Shown: piece by piece, positions 4,483 to 50,959 of the stretch
How the letters are laid out: each line of letters opens with the position of its first letter
Position numbering within the stretch: position 1 is the first letter of the stretch
Source: Candidatus Omnitrophota bacterium
GTDB taxonomy: Bacteria > Omnitrophota > Gorgyraeia > Gygaellales > JBFMHM01
NCBI GenBank assembly: GCA_040753015.1
Contig: JBFMHM010000001.1
Coordinates: forward strand, 339,157 to 403,156
DNA length: 64,000 nt
Direction of reading: 5' to 3'
Program-made: the position numbers and the translations under genes
The notes under the pieces: model-generated
What the model saw: only the letters and a program-made list of their open reading frames with translations
Told to the model about the DNA's origin: nothing
Databases searched by the model: none

Positions 4483-5688
4483 TTAAAAATAATCTTGATA
4501 TATCTCTCTGGCTTTAATAATGAAATCAGAAAATAAACTTCCCCTATCTTTATCCTCTGGAAGGCGATTATTTTCAATACAGTATCTTACTAATCCTAAA
4601 GCCCTAACACCCCAAATACTCTCAAAATAAGGAACTAGATTTATATCTTTAACGCGGCCTAATTTTATAGGCTTTTCTAAGCTTGCCTCAGCTAATTCTA
4701 TAAAACCTTCAATTAAAGAAATCTCTCCAGTAATTATAATATTTTGTGTTTGGCCCTGCATATCTAATAACTCTTTTTTAATCAAACTAACCATACCTTT
4801 GGTTTCCTCGGTAATGATTGAAGAAACCAGACTTTTACTCAATGTCTTATAATCATTATCTCTTTTGATAACTATCTCCTCGTCTTTAAAACTATCCGGC
4901 ATATTCATTACAGCGTAAGAATCGCTCACCTGACTAGCAGATTCTTTTGATATATCCATTTTTTCTGCTAGCGCTTGGCACAAATTATTATAGCCAAAAG
5001 AAAGCGTCCTATAGTCAACAAGTTTATTATTAGAAAAGTTTAAAATTTCAACTAAATCATCGCCTATGTCAATCAACGTCGCGCCATTTAATTTATCTTC
5101 ATTATCAAGCGTAGATGCGGCTGTTGCAAGGCCAGATAAAATAATACCGCTTGTACTAACGCCTATATGCCTAAATGCCTGCCTCGTGCATTCTAGATAC
5201 ATAAAGTCAGACCTAACCAAAAATAGCTCAACCTCAAGCCTATGAGCGCTTAAACCTACCGGTTCTTGAATGTCATCATGATTATCAACTTTGTATTTAT
5301 GCGGAACTTCAAAAATAACTTCCTCATTTAAATCCAAGCCTAGATCGCGAGCAAATTTATTAACTCTTTTTACATCAACTTGCCTAATAACTCTATTATT
5401 GGCCTCTGAAAGCGGAAGGCGTGCATTAACTCTTGAACTTTTTATGAAATCTCCCTTTGTATTGATAAAAACATTCCTAATAGAAGTGCCGGATTTGCTT
5501 TCTAAATTATTTATAATCCTGGATATTGCCTCGCTAAAAGACACAAGATCCATAACTCTCCCCTTAGAAAACCCCTTTGACTGTGTCTTCTCTATGTAGA
5601 TATCACGAATATTTTTCCTATGGTCTACAGATGCTAAAACACCAACAATTTTACTACCGTCAATATCTAATCCGCAAATAAAATCCAT
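4483..5688 (-). CDS. ftsA: Cell division protein FtsA
   Basis: 401 aa actin-like ATPase. GLDIDGSKI N-terminus. Position downstream of ftsQ in the dcw cluster. Confidence 0.85.
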   Translation of the reverse strand: MDFICGLDIDGSKIVGVLASVDHRKNIRDIYIEKTQSKGFSKGRVMDLVSFSEAISRIINNLESKSGTSIRNVFINTKGDFIKSSRVNARLPLSEANNRVIRQVDVKRVNKFARDLGLDLNEEVIFEVPHKYKVDNHDDIQEPVGLSAHRLEVELFLVRSDFMYLECTRQAFRHIGVSTSGIILSGLATAASTLDNEDKLNGATLIDIGDDLVEILNFSNNKLVDYRTLSFGYNNLCQALAEKMDISKESASQVSDSYAVMNMPDSFKDEEIVIKRDNDYKTLSKSLVSSIITEETKGMVSLIKKELLDMQGQTQNIIITGEISLIEGFIELAEASLEKPIKLGRVKDINLVPYFESIWGVRALGLVRYCIENNRLPEDKDRGSLFSDFIIKAREIYQDYF

Positions 5689-48700: not shown

Positions 48701-48708
48701 AAACTGAT

Positions 48709-48730
48709 CCCCCCCCCTTTTTTTTCTTTT
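48709..48730. repeat. Homopolymeric tract C9-T8-C-T4 immediately upstream of the crcB start
   Basis: Plus strand ccccccccc tttttttt c tttt (G9 on the coding strand, 8 nt before the crcB ATG). A 9-nt G/C run is exceptional in a 30% GC genome. Confidence 0.7.
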
Positions 48731-48732
48731 CG

Positions 48733-48780
48733 CAAAATAACAGGAAATAACAGAAATAACTAAATAACAGCTAAATAACA
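48733..48780. repeat. Five tandem ~9-nt repeats (aaataacag-like) abutting the left inverted repeat of the IS-like element
   Basis: aaaataacag gaaataacag aaataacta aataacag ctaaataacag. The final cag is the first three bases of the 27-bp terminal repeat. Confidence 0.6.
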
Positions 48781-49791
48781 GGGTCAGACCTCCACTTTAG
48801 AAGTTATCTCTCTAACTACGTTAGCCAACTTCTTATCATTATCTATCTGCCTCTTAAAATCTATTGCGGCCTTGCTTACCGCTGAAAATTTCATATTAAA
48901 TAATTCACCAATCTGATTGTTTGTAAGTACTGTCTTTGTTCGCATAATGTATATTGCTGCCTTTTTTCCTGTCATGGGGCGCTTAGTGCTGCTTTTAAGG
49001 TCATTGGGATCTTGCTTAAAGTATTTTGCTGTTAAGTTAATTATATCATTGGGATCTGTTTGATTACAGGCAATCCTTTTATAGGCAAAATCTTTATAGG
49101 CAGACTGAGTAGCTAATTCGCTCAACTGTTCTTTAATAAAGTTCTTTCCGCCTAAAAGAAATCCGGCATAGGTGTTTTTAAGCGGATCTATTTGCTTGTC
49201 AATAGCGGCAGAGACAAATGACGAATATTTGTGCATATCCATATCAAGAAGAGTTTTAAGCTTGGAGATGTTAACAATATTGCTTTTACCTTTTATATAA
49301 TCATTATAGCTGGACCAACGGTATTTGTTGGGGGCGTCTACTATTTTCGCTCTCACAGGATTTAGATGAATATAGCGAGTCAGTTCTTTAAAGTAAATAT
49401 CAGCTTGTACAAGAATTGATTTATACCTTCCTTGAAAAAGATGGCCGCATTTATTACGTTTCTTATTGTAATAGATAGTATAAGCAGTATTGATATACTG
49501 CATTATTTTCGATAGATTAGGTTGAGTGGTTTCTAAGAGCAAATGATAATGATTACTCATTAAGCAATAAGCATAAAGATAAAACTTAAATTTGTCTCGG
49601 GCTTGATTTAGATATTCTAGAAACTTATTAAAATCGTATTCGCTGATAAAGATCTTTTTGCGATCGTCACCGCGGCTAGCTATGTGATATAATAATCCTT
49701 CACCTTGTAATCGATATGGTCGTGCCATAAAATTATTTTATACGAAGAAACATTTTTGTCAATTAACTTCTAAAGTGGAGGTCTGACCCTG
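48778..49791 (-). mobile_element. IS-like element: single Y1 HuH transposase gene bounded by 27-bp perfect terminal inverted repeats
   Basis: cagggtcagacctccactttagaagtt at 48778-48804 is the exact reverse complement of 49765-49791. There is one ORF between the repeats and no obvious target-site duplication. Confidence 0.6.
48784..49728 (-). CDS. Y1 (HuH) tyrosine transposase, IS200/RAYT-like, with C-terminal DnaA-C-like helix-turn-helix extension
   Basis: 314 aa. HuH motif SNHYHLLLE, YRWSSY tyrosine region, and a C-terminal TNNQIGELF...SAVSKA resembling the DnaA domain IV HTH. Confidence 0.7.
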   Translation of the reverse strand: MARPYRLQGEGLLYHIASRGDDRKKIFISEYDFNKFLEYLNQARDKFKFYLYAYCLMSNHYHLLLETTQPNLSKIMQYINTAYTIYYNKKRNKCGHLFQGRYKSILVQADIYFKELTRYIHLNPVRAKIVDAPNKYRWSSYNDYIKGKSNIVNISKLKTLLDMDMHKYSSFVSAAIDKQIDPLKNTYAGFLLGGKNFIKEQLSELATQSAYKDFAYKRIACNQTDPNDIINLTAKYFKQDPNDLKSSTKRPMTGKKAAIYIMRTKTVLTNNQIGELFNMKFSAVSKAAIDFKRQIDNDKKLANVVREITSKVEV

Positions 49792-49819
49792 GTTTTCGCC
49801 GAAACCGAAAAAGAACAAT

Positions 49820-49897
49820 TGGGGTGGGTGACGGGATTCGAACCCGCGGCACCTTGAGCCACAGTCAAGCGCTCTACCGGGCTGAGCTACACCCACC
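49820..49897 (-). tRNA. tRNA-His (anticodon GUG) with encoded G-1 and CCA
   Basis: Cloverleaf folds by hand. Acceptor GUGGGUG/CACCCAC. Anticodon loop CUGUGGC. An extra 5' G pairs with discriminator C73. T-loop UUCGAAU. 3' CCA is encoded. Confidence 0.85.
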
Positions 49898-49906
49898 ACA
49901 AGAAAA

Positions 49907-50959
49907 TTAATTAAGAATCTTCTTAGATAATTTATCTTCGATACTTACTTTAATGTTCTCAAGGCCCATTCTCGGCCTATCAAACTTTGTCTTTATCTTA
50001 AAATCTAAAACAATTTTACCGCCAATATTACTGAATACCTCAAATACTGCTCCCATAATCTTTGCAGCATCCGGCGCTTCTTTAGAATTATCTTTTGGTT
50101 CTTCGATTTTGATAAAAGTCATATTTTTTAATTCTAGATGTGATTTTATTAATAAATCGTTATTACTAGAATTTAAATCTGTCAAAAAATCTAAAGATGC
50201 CTTCTCAACCTTTAAATCGGCCAAATTCACATAATTATTGTAATAAGGCGATAGGTACATGCCGTCTATATCTCTTAAATTAATGTTCCCTTCCATATCT
50301 CTCTTACCAAAATTTACCCACCCTTGGCCGTCAATACGGCCAGCCGCGTGTTCATTTTCCCAGGGAATATTACCTTTTATTTGATATATAGTCCTCATAT
50401 GCCTCGGCGGATAGGCATAGTTTTTTAAGATAAAATTCAATGAATCAAATTTTATTTTGAGGCCGCTTTCACTAATAACTTTATCAATAACTTCAAATTT
50501 TCCATCAATAATTTTTAAATTTTTAATAACTAAAGGAATGTTTATCCTAAAACGAAAATTTTTTGCTTCTTGCGCAGAAACTTCTTTATTATCTACGCTA
50601 TCTGCAGCTAAAGCGATAACTAGCTCCTGCTTCTGCCGAGTAAAAATAATATACGGCTTATTTACAATAATATTATTTAAGACTATTTTTGCGCCTAGAA
50701 ATCCCGGTAAGCTTGGCGATATATAAATATAATCAATATTACCTAAATCTTTAATCTTGATACCGCTTACTTTAATATTAAGCGGAACACTTATCCTAAA
50801 ATTACTTATCTCTACATCTTTTTTAAAAATATTTTCTAGGCTGTTTTCTATTATAGATTCGCCTTTGATAGCGATGAATATATAAATACTACTTACAAAA
50901 AAAACAATACAAACAATCAAAATAAAAATTGCTCTTAATGTTATTTTTATCCGTCTCAT
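49907..50959 (-). CDS. Membrane-anchored hypothetical protein (possibly AsmA/DUF748-like)
   Basis: 350 aa. N-terminal TM and a beta-rich, repeat-like body. No catalytic motif. Confidence 0.3.
   Translation of the reverse strand: MRRIKITLRAIFILIVCIVFFVSSIYIFIAIKGESIIENSLENIFKKDVEISNFRISVPLNIKVSGIKIKDLGNIDYIYISPSLPGFLGAKIVLNNIIVNKPYIIFTRQKQELVIALAADSVDNKEVSAQEAKNFRFRINIPLVIKNLKIIDGKFEVIDKVISESGLKIKFDSLNFILKNYAYPPRHMRTIYQIKGNIPWENEHAAGRIDGQGWVNFGKRDMEGNINLRDIDGMYLSPYYNNYVNLADLKVEKASLDFLTDLNSSNNDLLIKSHLELKNMTFIKIEEPKDNSKEAPDAAKIMGAVFEVFSNIGGKIVLDFKIKTKFDRPRMGLENIKVSIEDKLSKKILN

Follow-up and report, generated by a model that had tools for sequence, protein, structure and literature searches.

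What kind of element is formed when the gene for a Y1 HUH nuclease is extended by a DnaA-like DNA-binding tail and framed by perfect inverted repeats? This question is raised by a locus on contig JBFMHM010000001.1 of a Candidatus Omnitrophota bacterium (assembly GCA_040753015.1), within the stretch of 64,000 nucleotides (positions 339,157 to 403,156 of the forward strand) that we refer to as the window and in whose coordinates positions are given. The original prediction placed there a transposase gene flanked by 27-bp repeats, and left two options: a domesticated RAYT that could service GC-rich hairpin elements, or an insertion sequence (IS) of undescribed architecture. Here we argue for a different answer. 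The feature is a genuine, intact TIRtron, a single-gene element of about 1.0 kb, and the class to which it belongs is already described. Moreover, we consider it probable (about 60%) that TIRtrons are autonomous mobile elements that belong, within the Y1 HUH superfamily, to the RAYT branch and that combine a DnaA-like helix-turn-helix (HTH) domain with an HUH domain that nicks at the tips of the element.

Identity of the element

Firstly, the encoded protein has the two parts that the original prediction assigned to it. The 314-aa open reading frame (ORF) specifies a RAYT-like Y1 HUH enzyme, as judged from a Pfam Y1_Tnp match of 55.7 bits (residues 12-121; cut-off 23) and from the motifs HYH (residues 60-62) and YRWSSY (residues 136-141). 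The best NCBIfam model is REP_Tyr_transpos, with 75.9 bits and thus below its equivalog cut-off of 80, and transpos_IS200 reaches merely 16.6 bits against a cut-off of 55. Residues H60, H62, R118-Y119-I120-H121-x-N123-P124 and W138-S139-S140 are invariant in 38 out of 38 homologs; the catalytic tyrosine, we presume, is found in the RYIHxNP block (118-124) and not in YRWSSY. The Pfam search confirmed only the nuclease, because the single sequence scored 29 bits with Bac_DnaA_C (residues 227-287), just below the gathering score of 31.5. The DnaA-like tail itself was nevertheless borne out when a profile of the 38 homologs was compared with the PDB, which retrieved domain IV of DnaA (3pvp, E 2.5e-9; 1j1v, E 3e-5).

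Secondly, structural comparison gave the same picture. An AlphaFold2 model of the complete protein (mean pLDDT 83.9) was used for a Foldseek search, in which the top PDB fold match was 4er8_A, the TnpA_REP/RAYT of E. coli with its REP hairpin (E 1.8e-6, TMt 0.70), followed by 3pvp, the DNA-binding domain of M. tuberculosis DnaA (TMt 0.87, root-mean-square deviation 1.2 A over 90 columns); the TnpA proteins of ISDra2 and IS608 ranked after both. These results show that the window protein is a Y1 nuclease of RAYT fold joined to an HTH of DnaA-domain-IV fold. No DDE or other transposase domain was detected in it by Pfam, NCBIfam or Foldseek, the Y1 HUH domain being its sole catalytic domain. In DnaA, the segment RDHTTV makes base contacts. 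In the HTH of the window protein this segment is replaced by MKFSAV, so that a DnaA box would not be expected as its target. Two further observations concern the middle of the protein. Residues 212-222 form a low-confidence linker in the model, and a profile alignment to Aquifex aeolicus DnaA (1l8q/2hcb) covers residues 164-307; there are hints, as yet unproven, that for residues 164-223 (window ~49060-49239) the homology may reach into the AAA+ lid (domain IIIb).

Thirdly, the gene and its flanks match a published class. Di Nocera, De Gregorio & Rocco (2013) named the unit of gene plus terminal inverted repeats (TIRs) a TIRtron and its enzyme TIRYT, and they described TIRs that share the motif GGGGWSAS, the main type, as well as TIRs that overlap the 3' end of the gene (PMC3733652). 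Quentin, Siguier, Chandler & Fichant (2018) defined subclass 2.1 of TnpA_REP by a C-terminal extension resembling Bac_DnaA_C, HTH_23 or HTH_28, equated it with the TIRYTs, and reported that no REP-like sequences flank its genes and that the TIR is unlike a DnaA box (PMC6006769). Both papers are cited, here and below, for the passages retrieved from them. With these descriptions in print, the idea of an undescribed IS architecture no longer holds. Like TIRYTs, the window enzyme is a RAYT-like Y1 protein that is longer than RAYTs and carries the Bac_DnaA_C/HTH-type extension. Its gene lies between TIRs and not between REPs, REP-like hairpins are not found nearby, and the downstream TIR overlaps the 3' end of the gene. 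The TIR opens with C-AGGGTCAG, which fits GGGGWSAS at seven of eight positions; in most relatives the corresponding sequence is GGGGTCAG. We found no essential difference, except that the host phylum, Omnitrophota, is absent from the 26 original examples (PMC3733652).

Mobility of related elements

The window element is located between tRNA-His and crcB, and its relatives reveal which segment of such a locus moves. A 93%-identical copy from another sample (L007) is homologous to the window up to exactly the tip of the TIR (...GGTCTGACCCTG), and the flank beyond this tip is without crcB. P0026, a protein of an Omnitrophota relative that is 60% identical to the window protein, is encoded on at least 24 contigs. 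Its gene is part of a 1037-bp unit that recurs at 99.5-100% identity, with three or more different contexts on its upstream side and five or more downstream (L089-L098, from related metagenomes), and several of the contigs end exactly at the element ends. In one case (L094), the unit splits the gene of a histidine-kinase paralog immediately behind the H-box (...IKTFTE), and the element opens there with AGAAGATAGA-GGGGTCAG, that is, 10 nt outside the G-run. Together, these junctions show that the mobile unit consists of the gene, the TIRs and about 10-12 outer nucleotides, and that the P0026 relative has been mobile recently. The term "domesticated" fits poorly with a relative that is near-identical in several contexts, one of which is a disrupted gene. 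Between L089 and L094, the P0026 element seemed to be inverted with respect to the histidine kinase, but this was dismissed, since the kinases of the two loci are not the same gene but paralogs with 80% identity.

No target-site duplication (TSD) was evident at the P0026 junctions or at any other junction seen. At the window copy, no direct repeat is present directly outside the 27-mers. This provisionally confirms the original prediction that the element has no TSD; it is provisional because the relatives suggest that the true ends lie about 6-10 nt farther out. The TSD result also bears on the possibility that the element is a conventional DDE-type IS of another family, with TIRs and TSDs. 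Such an IS would share with the window element the TIRs, the length of about 1 kb, the single ORF and the multi-copy relatives. However, the only catalytic domain is Y1 HUH, and the relatives are multi-copy without TSDs. The probability of this explanation is negligible, as the domain and fold results had already refuted it.

Anatomy of the terminal inverted repeats

The 27-mer CAGGGTCAGACCTCCACTTTAGAAGTT occurs twice in the window, at 48779-48805 (plus) and 49765-49791 (minus), and no match of this kind was obtained in 100 shuffles. The exact repeats that had been predicted are therefore present, although their start had been put one base off, at 48778, and the perfect inverted repeat is really 28 nt, with a weaker repeat reaching 33 nt. 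The conserved core GGGTCAGACC sits at the outer end of the perfect arm of the upstream TIR; judged by its relatives, a weaker outer segment of about 7 nt, AAAACCA, probably belongs to the element as well. The perfect arm of the downstream TIR overlaps the last seven codons of the ORF (TSKVEV) and its TGA stop. On either strand, the window TIRs fold no better than shuffled sequences, and they show neither self-complementarity nor a terminator-like local hairpin. The absence of a single-stranded hairpin fits recognition of duplex DNA rather than hairpin recognition of the REP or IS200 type.

To place the window copy in its family, we used a homolog search at E <= 0.001, which gave at least 7,700 homologs among the matches listed; the best named ones belong to Candidatus Omnitrophota. 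Eighty loci were fetched from GTDB species representatives, and further ones through contig look-ups. They cover Omnitrophota, WOR-3, Nitrospirota, Desulfobacterota, Planctomycetota, Acidobacteriota, Legionella, Psychromonas, Nitrosomonas and others. A search of plasmids returned 28 weak matches annotated "transposase" and nothing mechanistic. For each gene, the 250 nt upstream were compared with the stop region, and the best inverted repeat was set against those of shuffled sequences. It beat every shuffle in about 62 of the 75 evaluable homologous genes, whose identity ranges from 30 to 93%. Nearly all of these repeats start with (A/G)GGGTCAG(G/A)(T/C)C. Typical distances are 20-100 nt from the end of the upstream arm to the start codon, and 3-20 nt from the stop codon to the tip of the downstream arm, which lies beyond it.

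From these comparisons we show that the TIR is made up of three parts: an outer segment of about 6-10 nt that varies between elements, the core GGGTCAG(G/A)(T/C)C that is conserved across phyla, and an inner segment of about 14-16 nt that is specific to subfamilies. In about one third of the loci, the inner segment consists of two direct repeats with a period of 7 nt right after the core (mean score of 2.9, versus 1.2 for shuffles). In many homologous loci, TTGACA is found directly after or inside the inner TIR, and the second 7-nt repeat often coincides with this -35 sequence of the gene promoter. Among the upstream TIRs of about 20 loci with such repeats (L018, L030, L037, L038, L064 and L011 are examples), we noted TTGACAT, TTAATTA, TCAAATA and GAAACTA, each present twice.

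Neighbouring paralogs in one genome share the core and differ in the inner TIR, as seen in L001 and L005, and across homologs the inner TIR and the C-terminal peptide vary together. Each of these two loci (L001 263-3321; L005 5001-9464) carries two diverged TIRYT paralogs that are 2-3.5 kb apart and about 53-70% identical to the window protein, with different C-terminal peptides (...SKVEV versus ...SHFKV).

A quite different way to account for repeats next to such a gene is that it encodes an ordinary host regulator, in which case the upstream repeat would be an operator, the 3' sequence a chance or terminator-like one, and no DNA would be processed. The upstream repeat does abut the -35 box, and autoregulation is plausible. 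On the other hand, the 3' copy is part of the coding sequence, its inverted partner is conserved in about 60 loci across phyla, and the repeats form no local hairpin terminator. In addition, the HUH and tyrosine motifs are invariant, and the relatives are copies in multiple contexts. The regulator explanation is highly improbable, being largely refuted by the family-wide repeats and the multi-context relatives.

Tandem copies at the element tips

Just outside the downstream TIR of the window copy, the outermost TIR segment is repeated in tandem, in the array AAAATAACAGG-AAATAACAG-AAATAAC-T-AAATAACAG-CT-AAATAACAGGGTCAG... (48734-48787), for which TRF reported a period of 10-11 and 4.9 copies (48735-48781). 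We refer to such arrays as stutter. About 10 nt from the very end of the TIR make up the unit, which in some cases runs a few nucleotides into the core. For a survey of the family, the 9-mer ending just before GTC was sought, with at most one mismatch, in the 101 nt farther out. Stutter was present at 30 of 118 ends (25%), compared with 3.3% of 8,999 random positions and 3.1% of 891 gene-boundary positions in the same loci (p ~1e-18), and two or more extra copies were found at 14 of the 118 ends, compared with 0.14-0.34% of the controls. At least one end was stuttered in 21 of 61 loci, and both ends in nine. Individual cases include both ends of both genes in L005, the 3' flank of L007, L026, L054 and L088, among others.

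We read these arrays as a putative footprint of nicking at the element tip. Counted from the G of GTC, units start between -9 and -14 and mostly end at -1/0 or at +3/+4, and their start position equals the element terminus that was mapped independently in L094. Solo TIRs are stuttered too (L099 and L104), and the array is polymorphic between samples (L095 versus L090). Unit sequences differ between loci and, therefore, do not represent a conserved binding box.

Alternatively, the stutter may result from replication slippage, or from fork stalling at a protein-bound or A-rich tip, or it may consist of selected iterons for the HTH, in which case it would not be an enzymatic footprint. With ~10 nt the units are as short as one helical turn, the sequence in which they lie is A-rich, DnaA-type domains bind 9-mer boxes that are often arrayed, and a test of the variance of unit starts against that of unit ends was not significant. 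However, the units of different loci are wholly different in sequence and have no box in common, they often hold truncated pieces of the core (such as ...GGGTCA), their starts match the mapped element terminus, and the gene-boundary controls of the very same loci are far less often stuttered. We regard slippage or iterons as a possible, though doubtful, explanation.

Solo repeats and action in trans

An exact scan of JGI metagenome contigs with the 22-nt TIR word GGGTCAGACCTCCACWTTAGAA yielded eight loci: one full TIRtron, five solo TIRs without gene remnant, one mini-element of about 130 bp, and L100, where the TIR lies directly upstream of a partial and distantly related (35% identical) TIRYT-like gene. 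In addition, two tandem 56-nt solo-TIR units are present at L090 670-768. One of the solo TIRs (L106) ends 8 nt ahead of the ATG of an mnmG/gidA-like gene, whose promoter it may supply or disturb.

Such dispersed repeats are what would be expected of a domesticated system resembling a REPtron, in which the gene is essentially immobile, the enzyme acts in trans on solo TIRs and mini-elements in the manner of REPs or REPINs, and the flanking TIRs are merely local members of the repeat family. The majority of solo TIRs among the eight loci, the mini-element and the tandem units all speak for it, as do the TIR repeat families that are present in some genomes (Di Nocera et al. 2013; PMC3733652) and the fact that genomes carry diverged paralogs with distinct TIRs instead of identical copies. 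On the other hand, the window contains no further copy of the TIR or of its core beyond the two ends of the element, the P0026 element moves as a whole unit of gene plus TIRs and disrupts a gene, and solo TIRs can equally be explained as deletion remnants. As an account of the whole class, such a system is rather unlikely. It is, however, compatible with autonomous mobility, and both could hold: the solo TIRs, together with the remark on repeat families in the retrieved part of PMC3733652, make a REP-like action in trans possible as a second, non-exclusive role. The proposal that the window enzyme services GC-rich hairpin elements found no support in the 64 kb, as the window has only five GC-rich hairpins, which are unrelated in sequence and none of which contains the TIR core.

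The window copy and its surroundings

The features of the window copy and of the related loci are listed in Table 1. Since its TIRs are perfect, its ORF is intact and its promoter is strong, the window copy is probably functional, as far as can be judged from its sequence. The -35 box of the promoter starts 2 nt inside (gene-ward of) the upstream TIR. The GC content of the element, 34.6%, matches that of the host, 33.7%.

Table 1. Positions of the window TIRtron, the parts of its protein, adjacent features and related repeats
Feature	Position	Strand	Remarks
TIRYT gene	48784..49728	minus	ORF call, 314 aa
TIRYT, N-terminal RAYT-like Y1 HUH nuclease	~residues 1-145		H60/H62, RYIHxNP 118-124, WSS 138-140
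TIRYT, middle part			helical linker
TIRYT, DnaA-domain-IV-like HTH	~residues 224-313		C-terminal
Upstream (5'-side) TIR	49764..49798	minus	perfect arm 49765-49791
Downstream (3'-side) TIR	48773..48806	plus	perfect arm 48779-48805; outer segment AAATAA 48773-48778
Predicted sigma-70-like promoter	49735..49762	minus	TTGACA-16-TAAAAT, 11/12 matches; drives the TIRYT gene
Junction stutter	48735..48772	plus	outermost TIR segment (AAATAACAG[G]) in ~4 additional tandem copies; adjoins the downstream TIR on its outer side
tRNA-His(GTG)	49820..49896	minus	3' end 28 nt from the upstream TIR tip
Solo TIRs	L099, L101, L103, L104, L106		
Mini-element	L102 510-650		

An Rfam scan of the window found the tRNA alone, and no fluoride riboswitch near crcB. 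Because neither this riboswitch nor another Rfam family is present, crcB may rely on read-through from the TIRtron. Directly upstream of crcB, in the stretch that separates its ATG (48700, minus) from the stutter array, lie two homopolymers, which read C9 and T8 in this order on the plus strand and A8 G9 on the strand of the gene (48701-48733). A DUF748 gene is found at 49907-50959; its protein is 100% identical to an NCBI protein of a Candidatus Omnitrophota MAG. Preference for tRNA genes as targets was considered and rejected, given that among the fetched loci an adjacent tRNA was seen at the window and L066 alone. In L066, a tRNA-Cys (4876-4960; followed by Gly and Leu) begins 9 nt after the TIRYT stop codon.

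Proposed mechanism and significance

TIRtrons are the only branch of the Y1 HUH enzymes known to have true TIRs and a module for binding double-stranded DNA that is borrowed from a replication initiator. For this reason, their mechanism cannot be that of IS200/IS605, a hairpin-guided "peel and paste" of single strands, nor that by which RAYTs process REPs. How, then, might they move? The DnaA-like HTH, whose base-contacting loop is unlike that of DnaA, would anchor the enzyme on the duplex inner TIR. This pairing would provide specificity for the cognate ends where several paralogs share a genome, and it would probably also autoregulate (repress) the abutting promoter. The conserved HUH domain would read the conserved core and nick a single strand at the tip of the element, about 10-13 nt outward of the core; given the symmetry of the TIRs, the nicked strands would be opposite at the two ends. 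Nicking by HUH enzymes leaves a 3'-OH on the flank and a 5'-phosphotyrosyl end on the element. The free 3'-OH of the flank could be extended by the host polymerase, so that productive events would lead to replicative or strand-displacement mobilisation, and abortive cycles of nicking, extension and resealing would each add a partial copy of the tip, giving rise to the stutter. We put forward this scheme only tentatively: TIRtrons would be active transposons that follow a Y1 route not yet described, with docking of the HTH on duplex TIRs, opposite-strand nicks about 10-13 nt outside GGGTCAG, nick-primed synthesis, and a stutter from abortive cycles that marks the cleavage site. If it is true, the cleavage sites of hundreds of elements can be read from their sequences in silico.

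Several observations weigh against autonomous mobility by tip nicking. Literature searches found no later and no biochemical work on the TIRtron class and, therefore, the position, strand and polarity of cleavage are all inferred. The nick-extend-reseal model predicts a constant unit start and a variable unit end; the standard deviations (0.70 versus 1.27 nt for starts and ends) show this as a non-significant trend (sign test, p 0.32). Stutter is seen at just a quarter of the ends, and plain replication slippage could yield it. Covariation between the recognition helix of the HTH and the inner TIR is confounded by phylogeny, and we draw no claim from it. Metagenome assembly can misjoin flanks across a 1-kb repeat, which weakens the pairings of contexts described for P0026, but not the existence of multiple distinct junctions. 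As to the window itself, its copy is single in the 64 kb, so that its own mobility can only be presumed, and an uninterrupted tRNA-His/crcB junction (empty site) was not recovered, the closest other relative of the neighbouring DUF748 gene being just 55% identical.

For the window itself the significance is modest: the locus is the insertion of a mobile element, with tRNA-His on one side and crcB on the other, and no system of a new kind. The TIRtron class, on the other hand, is very large and spans many phyla, and in the searchable literature it has been treated by bioinformatic work alone (PMC3733652, PMC6006769), with no biochemistry reported. The three-part anatomy of the TIR, the promoter abutting the TIR, the recent mobility and the tip stutter are not contained in the retrieved passages of these two papers and are added here. 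Recent mobility, a three-part TIR and a stutter at a mapped end make the class directly testable.

Comparison with known systems

Among known systems, RAYTs and their REPtrons come closest to the nuclease part. In structure, the N-terminal domain of the window protein resembles E. coli TnpA_REP (PDB 4ER8) most closely, and the two have in common the HUH and YxxxNP motifs and a gene flanked by inverted copies of the cognate repeat. However, RAYTs are about 150-190 aa long and are without a DnaA-like tail, and their repeats are hairpin palindromes of 20-40 nt that occur in hundreds of copies, whereas the TIRs of the window do not fold and have no extra copies in the 64 kb. The window protein also stays under the cut-off of REP_Tyr_transpos.

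With the TnpA proteins of the IS200/IS605 family (IS608, ISDra2), the window element shares the Y1 HUH fold, the lack of a TSD and the small size. In these ISs, however, the ends are subterminal hairpins in direct orientation, and the transposase, of about 130-150 aa, is an obligate dimer on single-stranded DNA. The window element has TIRs and no hairpins, and its protein falls far short of the transpos_IS200 cut-off.

The C-terminal ~90 residues of the window protein superpose on domain IV of DnaA (PDB 3PVP, 1J1V). Unlike DnaA, the window protein is without an AAA+ domain, aligns to the domain IV region alone, and differs in the RDHTTV segment; the TIR, too, bears no likeness to a DnaA box.

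Finally, an analogy to the stutter may be found in the rolling-circle HUH transposons, that is, Helitrons and IS91/ISCR, where HUH nicking together with replication is given as the cause of tandem or multiple termini. The analogy would extend only to the reiterated termini, as Helitrons and IS91/ISCR have enzymes of the Y2 or Rep class, asymmetric ends without TIRs, and much longer reiterations.

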